From: a virus
Taxonomy: Duplodnaviria > Caudoviricetes
Virus record (IMG/VR): IMGVR_UViG_3300006483_000009
Span: 1 to 32,361 of that record
Direction: 5' to 3' (one strand)
DNA length: 32,361 bases
Part shown: positions 7,592 to 12,164 of the stretch, in pieces
Layout of the letters: the number at the start of each line of letters is the position of its first letter
Numbering within the stretch: the first letter of the stretch is position 1
Made by a program: the position numbers and the translations under genes
Notes under the pieces: model-generated
What the model saw: the letters and a program-made list of their open reading frames with translations, nothing else
Database searches by the model: none
Told to the model about the DNA's origin: nothing

Positions 7592-7611
7592 AGATGAGGA
7601 GATATGATGTA

Positions 7612-8778
7612 ATGAGTAAGAGATATTTAACAGCAGAAAGTGTATGTGCTGGACATCCTGATAAACTATGCGACATTATTGCAGATAGCATTTTGGAAGC
7701 ATGCCTACGTAAAGATAAGGCATCACGTGTCGCTTGTGAGGTAATGGCAACCAAGGGAAAAATTATCGTGGCGGGCGAGATCTCCTGCAGCGAGAAAGTG
7801 AATATTAGAGACATTGTAAAAACTGTACTAAAGGATGTGGGATACAATCCTCTAAAATTTTTGATTTATGTATATGTACATAATCAAAGTGTAGATATTG
7901 CGGCTGGTGTGAACACCGCACTGGAAGCACGAAATGGGATAAACGAACAGTACGGTTCCATCGGTGCTGGAGACCAGGGAACTATGTATGGCTATGCTAC
8001 AAGGGAAACAAGAGAAATGCTTCCCCTGCCCCTTGTACTTTCCCACAGAATCGTAAAGAGACTGGATGATTGTCGCAAAGGAAAACTGATAAAAGGGATT
8101 CTTCCTGATGGTAAAGCACAGGTAACTGTGGAGTATGAAGATGACACTCCAGTAAGAATAAAGACGATTGTGATTTCGGTACAGCATGATAAGAATAAAA
8201 CACAGGACGAACTTAAGGCGGATATCCTTAACAATGTCTTATGGCAGTGCTTTGAGGACTTCCCTTTTGATGATGAAACCGAGCTTCTTATCAATCCGTC
8301 GGGGCAGTTTGTTCTTGGTGGTCCCGCTGCCGATACGGGTTTGACTGGAAGAAAAATCATGGTCGATACCTATGGAGGGCTTGCATCCCATGGGGGTGGT
8401 GCTCTTTGTGGCAAAGACCCAACCAAAGTTGACCGAAGCGGTGCTTACATGACTCGGTATATTGCCAAACATATCGTTTGGTGCGGTTATGCCAAGAAAT
8501 GTGAAGTGAGTATTTCCTATGCCATTGGTAAGGCAAATCCTGTAGCCTTTACTGTAAATACCCTTGGCACTGGAACTGTTTCTGATGAAATACTAACTAT
8601 TGCTGCTCAGGAGACTTTCAACTTAAGACCTGCGGCCATCATTGAAAAGCTGCGTCTAAGAAATGTGATTTATTCTGATACAGCGGTTTATGGTCACTTT
8701 AATAGTTGTCTGTTCCCATGGGAGGATGTAAATAAGTACAGTGAATTTAGAAAGGCGGTGGAAAAGTATGTTGATTGA
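7612..8778 (+). CDS. metK: S-adenosylmethionine synthetase (phage-encoded)
   Basis: ESVCAGHPDK, GAGDQG, PDGKAQV, DTGLTGRKIMVDTYGG, HGGGALCGKDPTKVDRS, YGHF; start 7612 after GAGGAG at 7596-7601. Confidence 0.95.
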   Translation: MSKRYLTAESVCAGHPDKLCDIIADSILEACLRKDKASRVACEVMATKGKIIVAGEISCSEKVNIRDIVKTVLKDVGYNPLKFLIYVYVHNQSVDIAAGVNTALEARNGINEQYGSIGAGDQGTMYGYATRETREMLPLPLVLSHRIVKRLDDCRKGKLIKGILPDGKAQVTVEYEDDTPVRIKTIVISVQHDKNKTQDELKADILNNVLWQCFEDFPFDDETELLINPSGQFVLGGPAADTGLTGRKIMVDTYGGLASHGGGALCGKDPTKVDRSGAYMTRYIAKHIVWCGYAKKCEVSISYAIGKANPVAFTVNTLGTGTVSDEILTIAAQETFNLRPAAIIEKLRLRNVIYSDTAVYGHFNSCLFPWEDVNKYSEFRKAVEKYVD

Positions 8779-10009
8779 AAAGATTAAAACAAAACAACTC
8801 ATCCCCGCTGACTATAACCCAAGGAAGGATTTAAAACCGGGTGATCCAGAGTACGAGAAACTTAAACGTTCCCTTGAGGAGTTTGGGTATGTAGAACCCG
8901 TTATATGGAATAAAACCACAGGAAGAGTTATCGGAGGTCACCAACGCTTGAAAGTCCTGCTGAGTATGGGCATGGATGAAATAGAATGTGTAGTAGTTGA
9001 AATGGATGAGCAAAAAGAAAAGGCTCTGAACATTGCACTAAATAAAATAAGTGGTGATTGGGATAAAGATAAATTGGCGCTACTTATCACAGACCTAAAT
9101 GCTTCTGACTTTGATGTATCTCTAACAGGTTTTGACCCAGGAGAATTGGATGATCTTTTTAAGGATTCCCTTAAGGATAATATAAAAGAAGATGATTTCG
9201 ATGTAGATAGCGAGCTGAAAAAGCCCGCTATTTCGCATTTAGGGGATGTTTGGATACTTGGACAGCATCGACTTGTCTGTGGAGATAGTACAAGGAAAGA
9301 CACCTTTGATGTCTTGATGGATGGAAAAGCTGCCAATCTGGTAGTTACGGACCCTCCATATAACGTCAACTATGAAGGTTCTGCTGGAAAAATAAAAAAT
9401 GACAATATGGGTAATGAAGCGTTCTATGATTTCCTGCTTGCAGCATTCCAAAATACTGAAGCAGCGATGGCAAAGGACGCTTCTATTTATGTATTTCATG
9501 CCGATACGGAAGGACTCAATTTTAGAAGAGCATTCTCCGATGCAGGGTTTTATCTTTCCGGCACTTGTATTTGGAAGAAGCAATCCCTTGTTCTCGGTCG
9601 TTCCCCTTATCAGTGGCAACATGAACCGGTACTCTTTGGATGGAAAAAGAAAGGCAAGCATCTCTGGTATTCAGACCGCAAGCAGACCACCATCTGGGAG
9701 TTTGAGAAACCAAAGAAAAATGGCGACCATCCAACCATGAAACCAGTGGCACTTGTGGCATACCCCATTATGAATTCGAGTCTTAGTAACTGCATCGTGC
9801 TTGATCCCTTTGGTGGTTCAGGAAGTACATTGATTGCTTGTGAGCAGACCGATAGAATTTGCTACACCATTGAACTGGATGAAAAGTACTGTGATGTCAT
9901 TGTGAAAAGGTATATTGAGCAAGTCGGAAACTCGGATGGTGTGTTTCTTTTAAGAGATGGTTCGAAATTTAGATATGGTGACCTGCCGGAGGTGAATGCA
10001 GATGAGTAA
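8768..10009 (+). CDS. ParB/Srx-fused N6-adenine/N4-cytosine DNA methyltransferase (beta-class motif order)
   Basis: N-term YNPR..FGYVEPVIWN..IGGHQRL; DPPY (motif IV) precedes HPTMKP and LDPFGGSGST (motif I). Confidence 0.92.
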   Translation: MLIEKIKTKQLIPADYNPRKDLKPGDPEYEKLKRSLEEFGYVEPVIWNKTTGRVIGGHQRLKVLLSMGMDEIECVVVEMDEQKEKALNIALNKISGDWDKDKLALLITDLNASDFDVSLTGFDPGELDDLFKDSLKDNIKEDDFDVDSELKKPAISHLGDVWILGQHRLVCGDSTRKDTFDVLMDGKAANLVVTDPPYNVNYEGSAGKIKNDNMGNEAFYDFLLAAFQNTEAAMAKDASIYVFHADTEGLNFRRAFSDAGFYLSGTCIWKKQSLVLGRSPYQWQHEPVLFGWKKKGKHLWYSDRKQTTIWEFEKPKKNGDHPTMKPVALVAYPIMNSSLSNCIVLDPFGGSGSTLIACEQTDRICYTIELDEKYCDVIVKRYIEQVGNSDGVFLLRDGSKFRYGDLPEVNADE

Positions 10010-12164
10010 ATTGACACTCGGTTCCCTTTTTGATGGTAGTGGTGGTTTTCCTCTAGGTGCTCTGCTTTGTGGAATTGAGCCGTTATGGGCTTCTGAAATT
10101 GAACCATTTCCTATAAGGGTCACGACTAAACGCATCCCACAGATGAAGCATTATGGGGATATCAATAAACTAAATGGTGCGGAGCTTCCGCCTGTAGATA
10201 TCATAACATTTGGTTCGCCTTGCACCGATATGAGTGTGGCAGGTAAAAGAGCTGGTCTAGACGGAGAGCAATCCGTCCTTTTTTATGAAGCAATACGAAT
10301 TATTAAAGAAATGAGGTGTAAGACCAATGGACAATATCCAAGGTACGCAGTCTGGGAAAATGTCCCTGGCGCATTCTCGTCAAATAAAGGAGAAGACTTC
10401 AAGGCAGTCCTCGAAACGGTCATCAGCGTCAAAGAGCCGAACACCTCGGTGCCTTTACCTGAAAAAGGACGATGGCCATACGCAGACATCTACATGGGAG
10501 ACGGATGGAGTGTGGCATACCGAACTATTGATGCGCAATATTTCGGAGTCCCCCAGCGTCGTCGTAGAATCTACCTTGTCGCAGATTTTGCAGACAGATG
10601 TGCCGGAGAAATACTATTTGAGTCCGAAGGCTTGTCAAGGGATTTTACGCCGAGCGGCAGCCCGTGGAAAAGAACTGCCGGAAATGCTAAAAACAGCACT
10701 GGAAAAGCAGGCGATAGCATAACTTGCCTAAATGACCAAGGCGGGAAAGTGATGTCTGTTTCGGAGGATATTACCGCCACACTTCGGGCGGAGGAACATG
10801 GACATCAGCCTTGCGTAATGCAGTCAAGTGGATTTTGTACCGAACACAGCGCCAAGAGCCGAAGTGTAGGTTATGAGGAAGAACGCTCTCCTACCCTTCG
10901 TGCAGGGGTTGTTCCAGGTACAGTCATGTCCTTTGAACCTGGTGCTGTTTCACGCATTGGTGGCCATACAGATAAAAACTTAAGTGGATCACTTCGTGCA
11001 AACATGGGAGATAACCAAACGGCTGTTGTCATTGAAAATCATCCAACTGATAGTCGTGTAAAACTGTCAGAGGATAATAAAGTACAGACGCTGACCTCTC
11101 GGATGGGGACTGGCGGTGGGAATGTACCCCTTATTATGAACACACCTAAAACATTAAAAATCCGCTCTGGCTGTGAAGGCGGCGGTAAGGGTGCATTGAT
11201 ACAGGATAATAAGTCTGCCACTCTTGGATGCAATAATGACCAGACCGTTTTTGTACCTACCGCATATGGCATCTGTTCTAATAAAAGTAATTCTATGCAG
11301 TCAAGCAATCCACATAGCGGTATATATGAAGCGGATACTTCTCGAACCATTGATGCCAATGGAGGAAATCCAGGATGTAATCAAGGTGGTATTGCAGTTG
11401 TTGCTTTGCAAGGCTCGATGATTGGAAGAGAGGATAAAAACGGTCCCCAAGGAAGCGGTATAGATGAAGATGTTTCTTTTACGTTGAATACCACGGATCG
11501 TCATGCTATTGCCTATGTTATGACAACCGGAGCCTATGCACAGGTTGAAGAAGATAAAGCACCAACTTTATTGTCGAGAGATTACAAGGATGCCCCTGTA
11601 GTAACTCAACCTTCTTACGGTATTGATCGGGCAGCCTTTAATCAAGGAAAGAACGCGCTATATAAACCTTCAATAGATAAAGAACAGCAACCTACACTCA
11701 CGGCAAAGGGGCCTGGAGCAGTGGCACAACCAGCATCCTTTTACCCTCAGATGAAAGCTGAAAGTCAATGCTATAGGCAGGATGGTACATCAAATGCGCT
11801 TATCAATGGCACTAATCCAGGTTATCAAAACGGATTGGTTGAACCAGACTATATCGTCAGAAGGCTTACACCAACCGAGTGTGCTAGATTGCAAGGCTTC
11901 CCCGATGATTGGTGTGATGATCTTGGTACGGAAAATCCTACAGAAGATGAAATTTTATTCTGGACGGAGGTTTGGGAAACCCACCGCAAAATCATAGGTA
12001 AAAGCAGTAGACCAAAAACAAGAAAGCAGATTATAAAATGGCTTAACAATCCTCATTCAGATTCAGCCGAATACAAAATGTGGGGCAATGGTGTAGCACT
12101 TCCATGCGTCTGTTTTGTGTTGACTGGCATTGTGTTATCTACACAAAATACCGCCGATGAATAA
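10002..12164 (+). CDS. C5-cytosine DNA methyltransferase with a very long variable region
   Basis: LFDGSGG (I), GSPC (IV), WENVPG (VI), PQRRRR (VIII), RRLTPTECARLQGFPD (IX), GNGV (X); SD GGAGG at 9988-9992. Confidence 0.93.
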   Translation: MSKLTLGSLFDGSGGFPLGALLCGIEPLWASEIEPFPIRVTTKRIPQMKHYGDINKLNGAELPPVDIITFGSPCTDMSVAGKRAGLDGEQSVLFYEAIRIIKEMRCKTNGQYPRYAVWENVPGAFSSNKGEDFKAVLETVISVKEPNTSVPLPEKGRWPYADIYMGDGWSVAYRTIDAQYFGVPQRRRRIYLVADFADRCAGEILFESEGLSRDFTPSGSPWKRTAGNAKNSTGKAGDSITCLNDQGGKVMSVSEDITATLRAEEHGHQPCVMQSSGFCTEHSAKSRSVGYEEERSPTLRAGVVPGTVMSFEPGAVSRIGGHTDKNLSGSLRANMGDNQTAVVIENHPTDSRVKLSEDNKVQTLTSRMGTGGGNVPLIMNTPKTLKIRSGCEGGGKGALIQDNKSATLGCNNDQTVFVPTAYGICSNKSNSMQSSNPHSGIYEADTSRTIDANGGNPGCNQGGIAVVALQGSMIGREDKNGPQGSGIDEDVSFTLNTTDRHAIAYVMTTGAYAQVEEDKAPTLLSRDYKDAPVVTQPSYGIDRAAFNQGKNALYKPSIDKEQQPTLTAKGPGAVAQPASFYPQMKAESQCYRQDGTSNALINGTNPGYQNGLVEPDYIVRRLTPTECARLQGFPDDWCDDLGTENPTEDEILFWTEVWETHRKIIGKSSRPKTRKQIIKWLNNPHSDSAEYKMWGNGVALPCVCFVLTGIVLSTQNTADE
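10327..10722 (+). CDS. Nested +1-frame gene inside the C5 MTase (M.EcoHK31I beta-subunit-like)
   Basis: GAGGTG at 10313-10318, 8 nt before ATG 10327; 131 aa ending STLSQILQTDVPEKYYLSPKACQGILRRAAARGKELPEMLKTALE, which resembles C5-MTase segments. Confidence 0.7.
   Translation: MDNIQGTQSGKMSLAHSRQIKEKTSRQSSKRSSASKSRTPRCLYLKKDDGHTQTSTWETDGVWHTELLMRNISESPSVVVESTLSQILQTDVPEKYYLSPKACQGILRRAAARGKELPEMLKTALEKQAIA

Follow-up and report, generated by a model that had tools for sequence, protein, structure and literature searches.

The C5 Methyltransferase Locus and Its Neighborhood

The stretch of DNA analyzed here (the window) comprises positions 1-32,361 of IMG/VR record IMGVR_UViG_3300006483_000009, a linear virus record assigned to Caudoviricetes, and its genes for terminase, portal, Clp protease, capsid, and tail identify it as a tailed phage. 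At 7594-12164 it encodes MetK, a ParB-N6/N4 methyltransferase, and a C5 methyltransferase, flanked by the small and large terminase genes, and downstream of the C5 gene (12255-14708) lie an amidoligase-like gene, DUF4314, an amidoligase, and gamma-glutamyl cyclotransferase-like genes. Among the neighbors scanned (MetK, the ParB-N6/N4 methyltransferase, the amidoligase-like gene, and DUF4314), no cognate endonuclease adjoined the C5 gene, and the adjacent partner by which a Type II restriction-modification system is recognized was thus absent from this set. The window matched no Rfam family and contained no relevant tandem repeat. Close homologs of the methyltransferase are carried by Bacillota genomes. 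Two further same-strand alternative-frame open reading frames (ORFs) were observed, one of 113 aa (9399-9740) within the N6/N4 methyltransferase gene and one of 140 aa (1791-2213) within a VapE-like gene, both free of Pfam matches.

The main ORF of the C5 gene (alpha; 9996..12164, plus strand, 722 aa) matched PF00145 with an E value of 7e-42. Its residues are numbered here from the ATG at 9996, although the ATG at 10002 is the likelier start by Shine-Dalgarno (SD) spacing; the upstream gene ends at 10009 and overlaps the alpha start (9996-10004). The features of a C5 methyltransferase were all observed, with motifs I-X in order and with P75-C76, E121-N-V, and Q187-R189-R191 invariant in 77 aligned rows. 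Motifs I-VIII are followed by a long variable region of about residues 243-620 (10722..11855, plus strand), which contains nine TL/TI units, is mosaic among homologs, and provides putative target-recognition modules; in the 44 of 57 representative homologs (defined below) that could be delimited, this region measured 208-429 aa with 3-11 TL/TI units. Phage C5 methyltransferases of the SPR/phi3T type are multispecific and carry several exchangeable target-recognition domains with one specificity each; the earlier note raised the possibility that the window enzyme, too, has several such domains. Beyond the variable region, motif IX (residues 621-639; 11856..11912, plus strand) was placed by alignment to M.HhaI and to residues 151-169 of an EcoHK31I-type beta chain, and motif X (12060..12131, plus strand) by alignment to M.HhaI and to the EcoHK31I-type locus. 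The alignment of motifs IX and X to M.HhaI (from residue 270 on) upheld the view, held in an earlier note made from the letters of the window, that the main frame keeps its own motif IX. The predicted alpha fold also matched M.HhaI; the model was confident over about residues 1-210 and 620-722 but not between, with pLDDT mostly below 50 in the variable region.

A Nested Open Reading Frame and Its Start Signals

Inside the alpha gene, a second ORF is read in the +1 frame of the same strand (10327..10722, plus strand, 131 aa; hereafter beta). It spans main codons 111 (start) to 242 (stop), covering motifs VI-VIII and about 45 codons more. The GAGGTG SD sequence (10313-10318) is spaced 8 nt from the ATG at 10327, and the earlier description of a 131-codon ORF over motifs VI-VIII with this signal was confirmed in the sequence. 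The SD overlaps a +1-frame TGA (10312-10314), and this composite element (10312..10318, plus strand), spelled by main codons M106-R107-C108, shuts the +1 frame five codons upstream of the beta start. Among 310 scored ATGs in the 11 long ORFs of the window, the beta SD ranked fifth, and two of the four better ones belong to real gene starts. Residues 1-40 of beta are rich in Ser, Lys, and Arg and are predicted to be unfolded, whereas residues 57-128 (10495..10710, plus strand) form a conserved core, delimited by homology to residues 37-109 of an EcoHK31I-type beta and to the stretch that single-chain enzymes carry after motif VIII. The nested protein matched neither Pfam nor NCBIfam; in PHROGs it matched phrog_16143 (DNA methyltransferase) at E 4e-5.

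Selection on the +1 Frame

We gathered 160 loci with the main-frame core (residues 1-240), which were hence not chosen by their +1 frame (the best 80 of at least 600 matches plus the best 80 of at least 560). In 137 of them the main ORF was complete and at least 500 aa long; the remaining 23 were dropped, 14 as cut by a contig or locus end and nine as short or broken, and all nine of the latter, read separately, retain the open +1 stretch. The loci kept were reduced to 57 representatives below 90% nucleotide identity, window included, with a mean identity of 73%; they are related and do not constitute independent trials, and no P value is attached to their counts.

Taken alone, the window is weak evidence, with 2.67 +1 stops expected under synonymous recoding and a probability of 0.039 for no stop. 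Across the 57 related representatives, however, not one +1 stop was observed in codons 111-240 against 128.9 expected under synonymous recoding, and the frame was open in all 57 compared with 6.05 expected. The upstream control region contained 337 +1 stops against 320 expected; within the overlap, the +2 frame had 283 stops where 426 were expected. Reduced synonymous variation was also found: identity at four-fold third bases was 0.39 over codons 1-104, 0.60 and 0.68 in the intervals that follow, 0.91 over codons 211-241, and 0.34 over codons 620-715. Stop avoidance and reduced synonymous variation in homologs were the two signs of a hidden gene that the earlier note had named for checking. 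Over about codons 211-240, amino-acid identity was 0.93/0.76/0.67 in the +1 frame versus 0.55/0.47/0.30 in the main frame; by this comparison, main codons 211-241 (10626..10718, plus strand) are a stretch in which the main frame is the passenger.

The start signals were likewise conserved. GAGG and the +1 TGA five codons upstream were both present in 138/138 sequences, of which 123 start beta with ATG and the other 15 with GTG. R107 is encoded by AGG in 57/57 representatives, compared with 139 of 1186 Arg codons elsewhere, and E105 is GAA in all 57. Invariance of the SD and start codon is confined to the Firmicute group; among distant members, the first open +1 codon varies between main codons 9 and 106. 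Judged on these sequence comparisons, the nested ORF is real and under selection, and the pattern is unlike that of a shadow frame.

Relationship to M.EcoHK31I

M.EcoHK31I is an alpha/beta C5 methyltransferase with the target YGGCCR (accessible parts of PMC2836561 and PMC3404938); the former describes a required beta chain that carries motif IX and whose gene lies within that of alpha in a different frame. This kind of enzyme is also treated in the accessible part of PMC5944983. We found an EcoHK31I-type locus via one primer given in the accessible text of PMC2836561, which matches 81 of 5,426 complete E. coli genomes. The locus used here (L331, from NZ_CP024886.1) is a near-identical allele in which a 309-aa methyltransferase faces a restriction endonuclease. 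Its beta (L331:3841-4371), a 176-aa +1 ORF from alpha codon 104, is unannotated in the RefSeq E. coli record; its ends, Met17, and Met26 agree by eye with the primers and accessible text of PMC2836561, one residue differing.

Residues 57-128 of the window beta and 37-109 of the L331 beta share 41% identity over 73 aa (pairwise E 4e-15), and homology was also detected by profile at E 1.6e-15 in a search of two sequences, so that the comparison with M.EcoHK31I drawn in the earlier note was borne out. The alpha cores are 34% identical over 236 columns. As in M.EcoHK31I, the small chain of the window lies wholly in the +1 frame inside alpha, starts near alpha codon 104-111, and has a homologous core. 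The two systems differ, however, in that the EcoHK31I beta of 176 aa ends with the motif IX that its alpha lacks, whereas the window beta has 131 aa and motif IX stands on alpha; moreover, the EcoHK31I alpha has 309 aa and lies beside a restriction endonuclease, whereas the window alpha has 722 aa, a long mosaic variable region, and the setting of an orphan phage gene. Because motif IX is on alpha and not on beta, the window enzyme is a variant of the M.EcoHK31I type and not a strict member of it. The suggestion that SPKACQGILRRA in beta resembles motif IX did not hold: motif IX of the L331 beta (residues 151-169) aligns with the window alpha at 621-639, away from the nested protein, and that main-frame stretch is the true motif IX.

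In truncations of the EcoHK31I beta, according to the accessible text of PMC2836561, protection begins falling at delta-37, and deletions of 41, 46, and 50 residues have cited Kd values of 2.4, 5.3, and 7.1 uM, respectively. Since the shared core begins at W37 and protection falls from delta-37, these published association data would concern the part shared with the window. The word accessory, used for the nested subunit in the earlier note, therefore probably understates its part, by analogy with the EcoHK31I truncations that enter the shared core and weaken association and activity (accessible text of PMC2836561).

Identity of the Beta Core and Predicted Complex

A profile of beta matched residues 178-225 of the single-chain enzyme BT12, directly after motif VIII (probability 95%, E 3e-8), and matched SpyI weakly (probability 38%, E 3e-4), which agrees with the earlier remark that beta resembles the segment following motif VIII. 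The beta profile had no match in the alpha profile, as expected from the accompanying claim that this segment is missing from the main frame. In BT12 (L335) and SpyI (L166), an LxxIL...V.EKY.LS segment stands in frame directly after motif VIII; unlike the window enzyme, both consist of one chain with no overprinting, and both are distant from the window alpha (long branches). From these profile matches, the shared core is the segment after motif VIII of single-chain enzymes, rather than motif IX.

Neither a profile search nor Foldseek with the beta model (pTM 0.30), which was confident only over about residues 91-130, matched beta to a solved structure. A complex of alpha with beta 40-131 was predicted at a score of 0.72, the best of three controls scoring 0.00; this is a model, and because alpha and beta amount to a single protein cut in two, the score may come from likeness to solved single-chain methyltransferases. 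The score required was reached by 116/157 solved pairs versus 2/215 mismatched pairs, counts that are only roughly valid with the alignments used. The runs shared at least 63% of contacts, with a partner pLDDT of at least 76, and the best predicted contacts joined beta 83-97 to alpha 622-631 (motif IX) and 186, and beta 70-74 to alpha 176-182 and 208-209.

Distribution among Phages and Relatives

Predicted proteins of about the same length included 734 relatives of the nested protein, and phage records with a match to it (E up to 1) numbered 226, plasmid records 535. Twelve phage records were fetched. The match was in the +1 frame in ten (P1, Lucky2013, a Vibrio phage, Bcep22, CcrC3, CobraSix, Javan105, MM1, IPP14, and phi-SsuSSJ27) and in frame after motif VIII in two (SpyI of phi1207.3 and BT12), a biased share, as 11 of the 12 had been chosen as nested-protein matches. 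Among 12 phage records that have the +1 form and whose annotation at the match was read, a nested gene is listed in MM1 only. When 82 diverse viral C5 enzymes were sampled without such bias, 18 matched a beta profile built from Firmicutes only, all 18 in the +1 frame with 121-217 open codons; with this Firmicute-trained profile the segment was not found in any frame of the other 64, which suggests that some C5 enzymes do without the segment or hold an unrecognized form of it. The same +1 motif was found in enzymes whose main chains share only about 30-40% identity. Among 71 P1-like loci, three lacked the anchor motif and the remainder represented 46 distinct cores, all of which (46/46) were open in the +1 frame for at least 140 codons. 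Every relative whose frame was read retained the +1 core. In a quick tree (99 rows, 172 columns), all 64 beta-less enzymes fell to the same side of a branch (94), while the 33 beta bearers needed three changes, a result that decides neither for nor against a single origin of beta.

Fused and Permuted Arrangements

Of the 120 longer matches listed, 93 consist of beta followed by motifs IX and X, and 71 of those 93 also end in motif I; natural fusions of beta to the variable region, IX, and X thus exist among relatives. With one fused protein as query, which over-samples the fused form, 80 sister gut-phage loci (L336-L415) were fetched, most sharing one collection prefix. Their methyltransferases are circularly permuted, alpha starting at motif III and motifs I-II lying at the gene end. 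Of the 80 loci, 52 carry the C-terminal half as a continuation of alpha and 21 as a continuation of beta; it is broken in one, and six were not called. A G run after the beta core was G7 in 20 alpha-type loci and G8 in 12 beta-type loci (e.g., L345 vs. L382), and G6 in three beta-type, two alpha-type, and one broken locus; this G7/G8 run is possibly a slippage switch and possibly an assembly or homopolymer error. The intact fused form was called in none of the 160 relatives of the window itself.

Counting EcoHK31I, one set of parts is divided over two frames in three different ways, which would fit two chains that together form one enzyme. M.AquI, a natural two-chain C5 enzyme, is split after motif VIII and resembles the fused beta-variable region-IX-X relatives; its small chain holds half the variable region and motifs IX-X, whereas in the window these parts stay on alpha, a distinction drawn from the description in the accessible part of PMC3404938. 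A split of this type, with the distal variable region and IX-X on the small chain, does not occur in the window, where beta ends before the variable region.

A Probable Two-Chain Enzyme and Its Alternatives

Taken together, we propose that the phage cytosine methyltransferase is probably a two-chain enzyme from one stretch of DNA, in which alpha is joined by a predicted partner beta that supplies the segment after motif VIII. The proposal starts from the nested ORF, the selection on it, its homology to the EcoHK31I beta and to the in-frame segment, and the absence of that segment from alpha; the further steps are ones that we infer. Ribosomes would initiate independently at 10327 from the SD of beta itself, whereas the main frame would give the catalytic chain with motifs I-VIII, the variable region, IX, and X. 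Beta would bind alpha as a heterodimer, as modeled, and its core would pack between motifs VIII and IX, holding the recognition domain on the catalytic domain, and methylation by alpha would need beta. The heterodimer might then methylate the phage DNA and shield it from host restriction, the role of protection given to orphan phage methyltransferases in the accessible part of PMC8637289.

The strongest competing account, which we consider unlikely, accepts that beta is translated and bound to alpha but makes it a modulator (a stabilizer, inhibitor, or specificity factor) of an alpha that, with its motif IX, is active alone. The window alpha, unlike that of EcoHK31I, has all ten named motifs, so that a count of motifs gives no evident reason for it to need beta. 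Without beta, the alpha core and C-terminal part are still modeled with confidence, and the need of EcoHK31I for its beta could rest on motif IX, which is present in that beta and absent from the window beta. However, EcoHK31I truncations that spare motif IX but enter the shared core lower both association and activity (accessible text of PMC2836561), and what single-chain enzymes hold in frame includes a match to the core, which is retained in all relatives read.

Access to the +1 frame by programmed ribosomal frameshifting from the main frame, in place of an own start, appears very improbable. Proteins in which the alpha N-terminus is fused to beta do occur (15 of the 120 longer matches listed, plus P0008 and P0038), but they lack motifs VI-X and have varied joins, as in broken genes or assembly errors, and the fixed SD codon, the start codon in 138/138, and the +1 stop five codons upstream favor initiation. 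We give still less credence to the idea that main-frame codon constraints or a nucleic-acid signal keep the +1 frame open and that no functional protein is made from it. The probability of 0.039 for the window alone and the Ser/Arg/Lys bias of beta residues 1-40, which is that of a shadow frame, would suit such an account; against it stand the 0 versus 129 expected stops, the better conservation of +1 than of main amino acids at codons 201-240, the same +1 protein motif where main chains are only about 30-40% identical, the homology to the EcoHK31I beta as a proven subunit, and the lack of an Rfam match. The conservation of the +1 start and protein and the EcoHK31I homology already contradict this account.

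Known Systems and Implications

The alpha/beta kind of enzyme is already known from EcoHK31I, and a nested ORF from the MM1 record; new here are the direct link to EcoHK31I and the relatives with the C-terminal half on either chain, often set by the G7/G8 tract. In the full-text literature, with subscription journals and REBASE outside the scope, we found no description of a wide family of overprinted beta subunits and none of the variant with motif IX kept on alpha. In Streptococcus phage MM1 (AJ302074.2), the nested +1 ORF14 is annotated "putative methyltransferase" inside the C5 methylase ORF13; it has the layout of the window, with a match to the beta core profile at E 2.6e-10 and motifs IX and X kept in the main frame, but its core is shorter and lacks the last helices, and its start is earlier.

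A broader proposal, toward which we remain somewhat skeptical, is that an ancient two-frame cassette exists in a wide group of phage C5 enzymes, P1 Dmt included, in which the parts after the beta core may lie on either chain, and that in the sister family a G7/G8 slip would change the subunit make-up without killing the enzyme. If true, these parts would all stand on alpha in the window and P1, EcoHK31I would have only motif IX on beta, and other members would have the variable region, IX, and X there; M.EcoHK31I, cited as a rare oddity, would become one branch of a widespread overprinted two-chain family whose subunit is mostly unannotated, and the contribution of beta would be redefined as the segment after motif VIII rather than motif IX. 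Recoded or codon-optimized copies would lose the hidden subunit and appear inactive, which would counsel caution in recoding such genes, and the arrangements would offer a natural series of split points for split-methyltransferase engineering and for the study of overlapping-gene persistence. There would also be testable ground for re-examining the unassigned cytosine activity of P1 Dmt.

In P1 Dmt (NC_005856.1), the C5 half carries a +1 beta core, as in the window, but is fused to a Dam-like domain. Within the P1 dmt gene (L417:6413-8677), the +1 frame stays open for 163 codons (NC_005856.1 66710-67201) and includes the beta core, unannotated in the reference record. We considered and rejected dmt-B as this nested gene, dmt-A/dmt-B being a split in P1vir according to the accessible part of PMC10695390; the accessible parts of PMC9024508 and PMC6755750 contain nothing on a nested P1 gene. 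In mycobacteriophage Lucky2013 (genes 113-114; L162:1634-2834), alpha ends without IX-X, and the overlapping next ORF, annotated as hypothetical, carries IX and X; with its +1 beta, this enzyme would be made of three pieces or encoded by a frameshifted gene.
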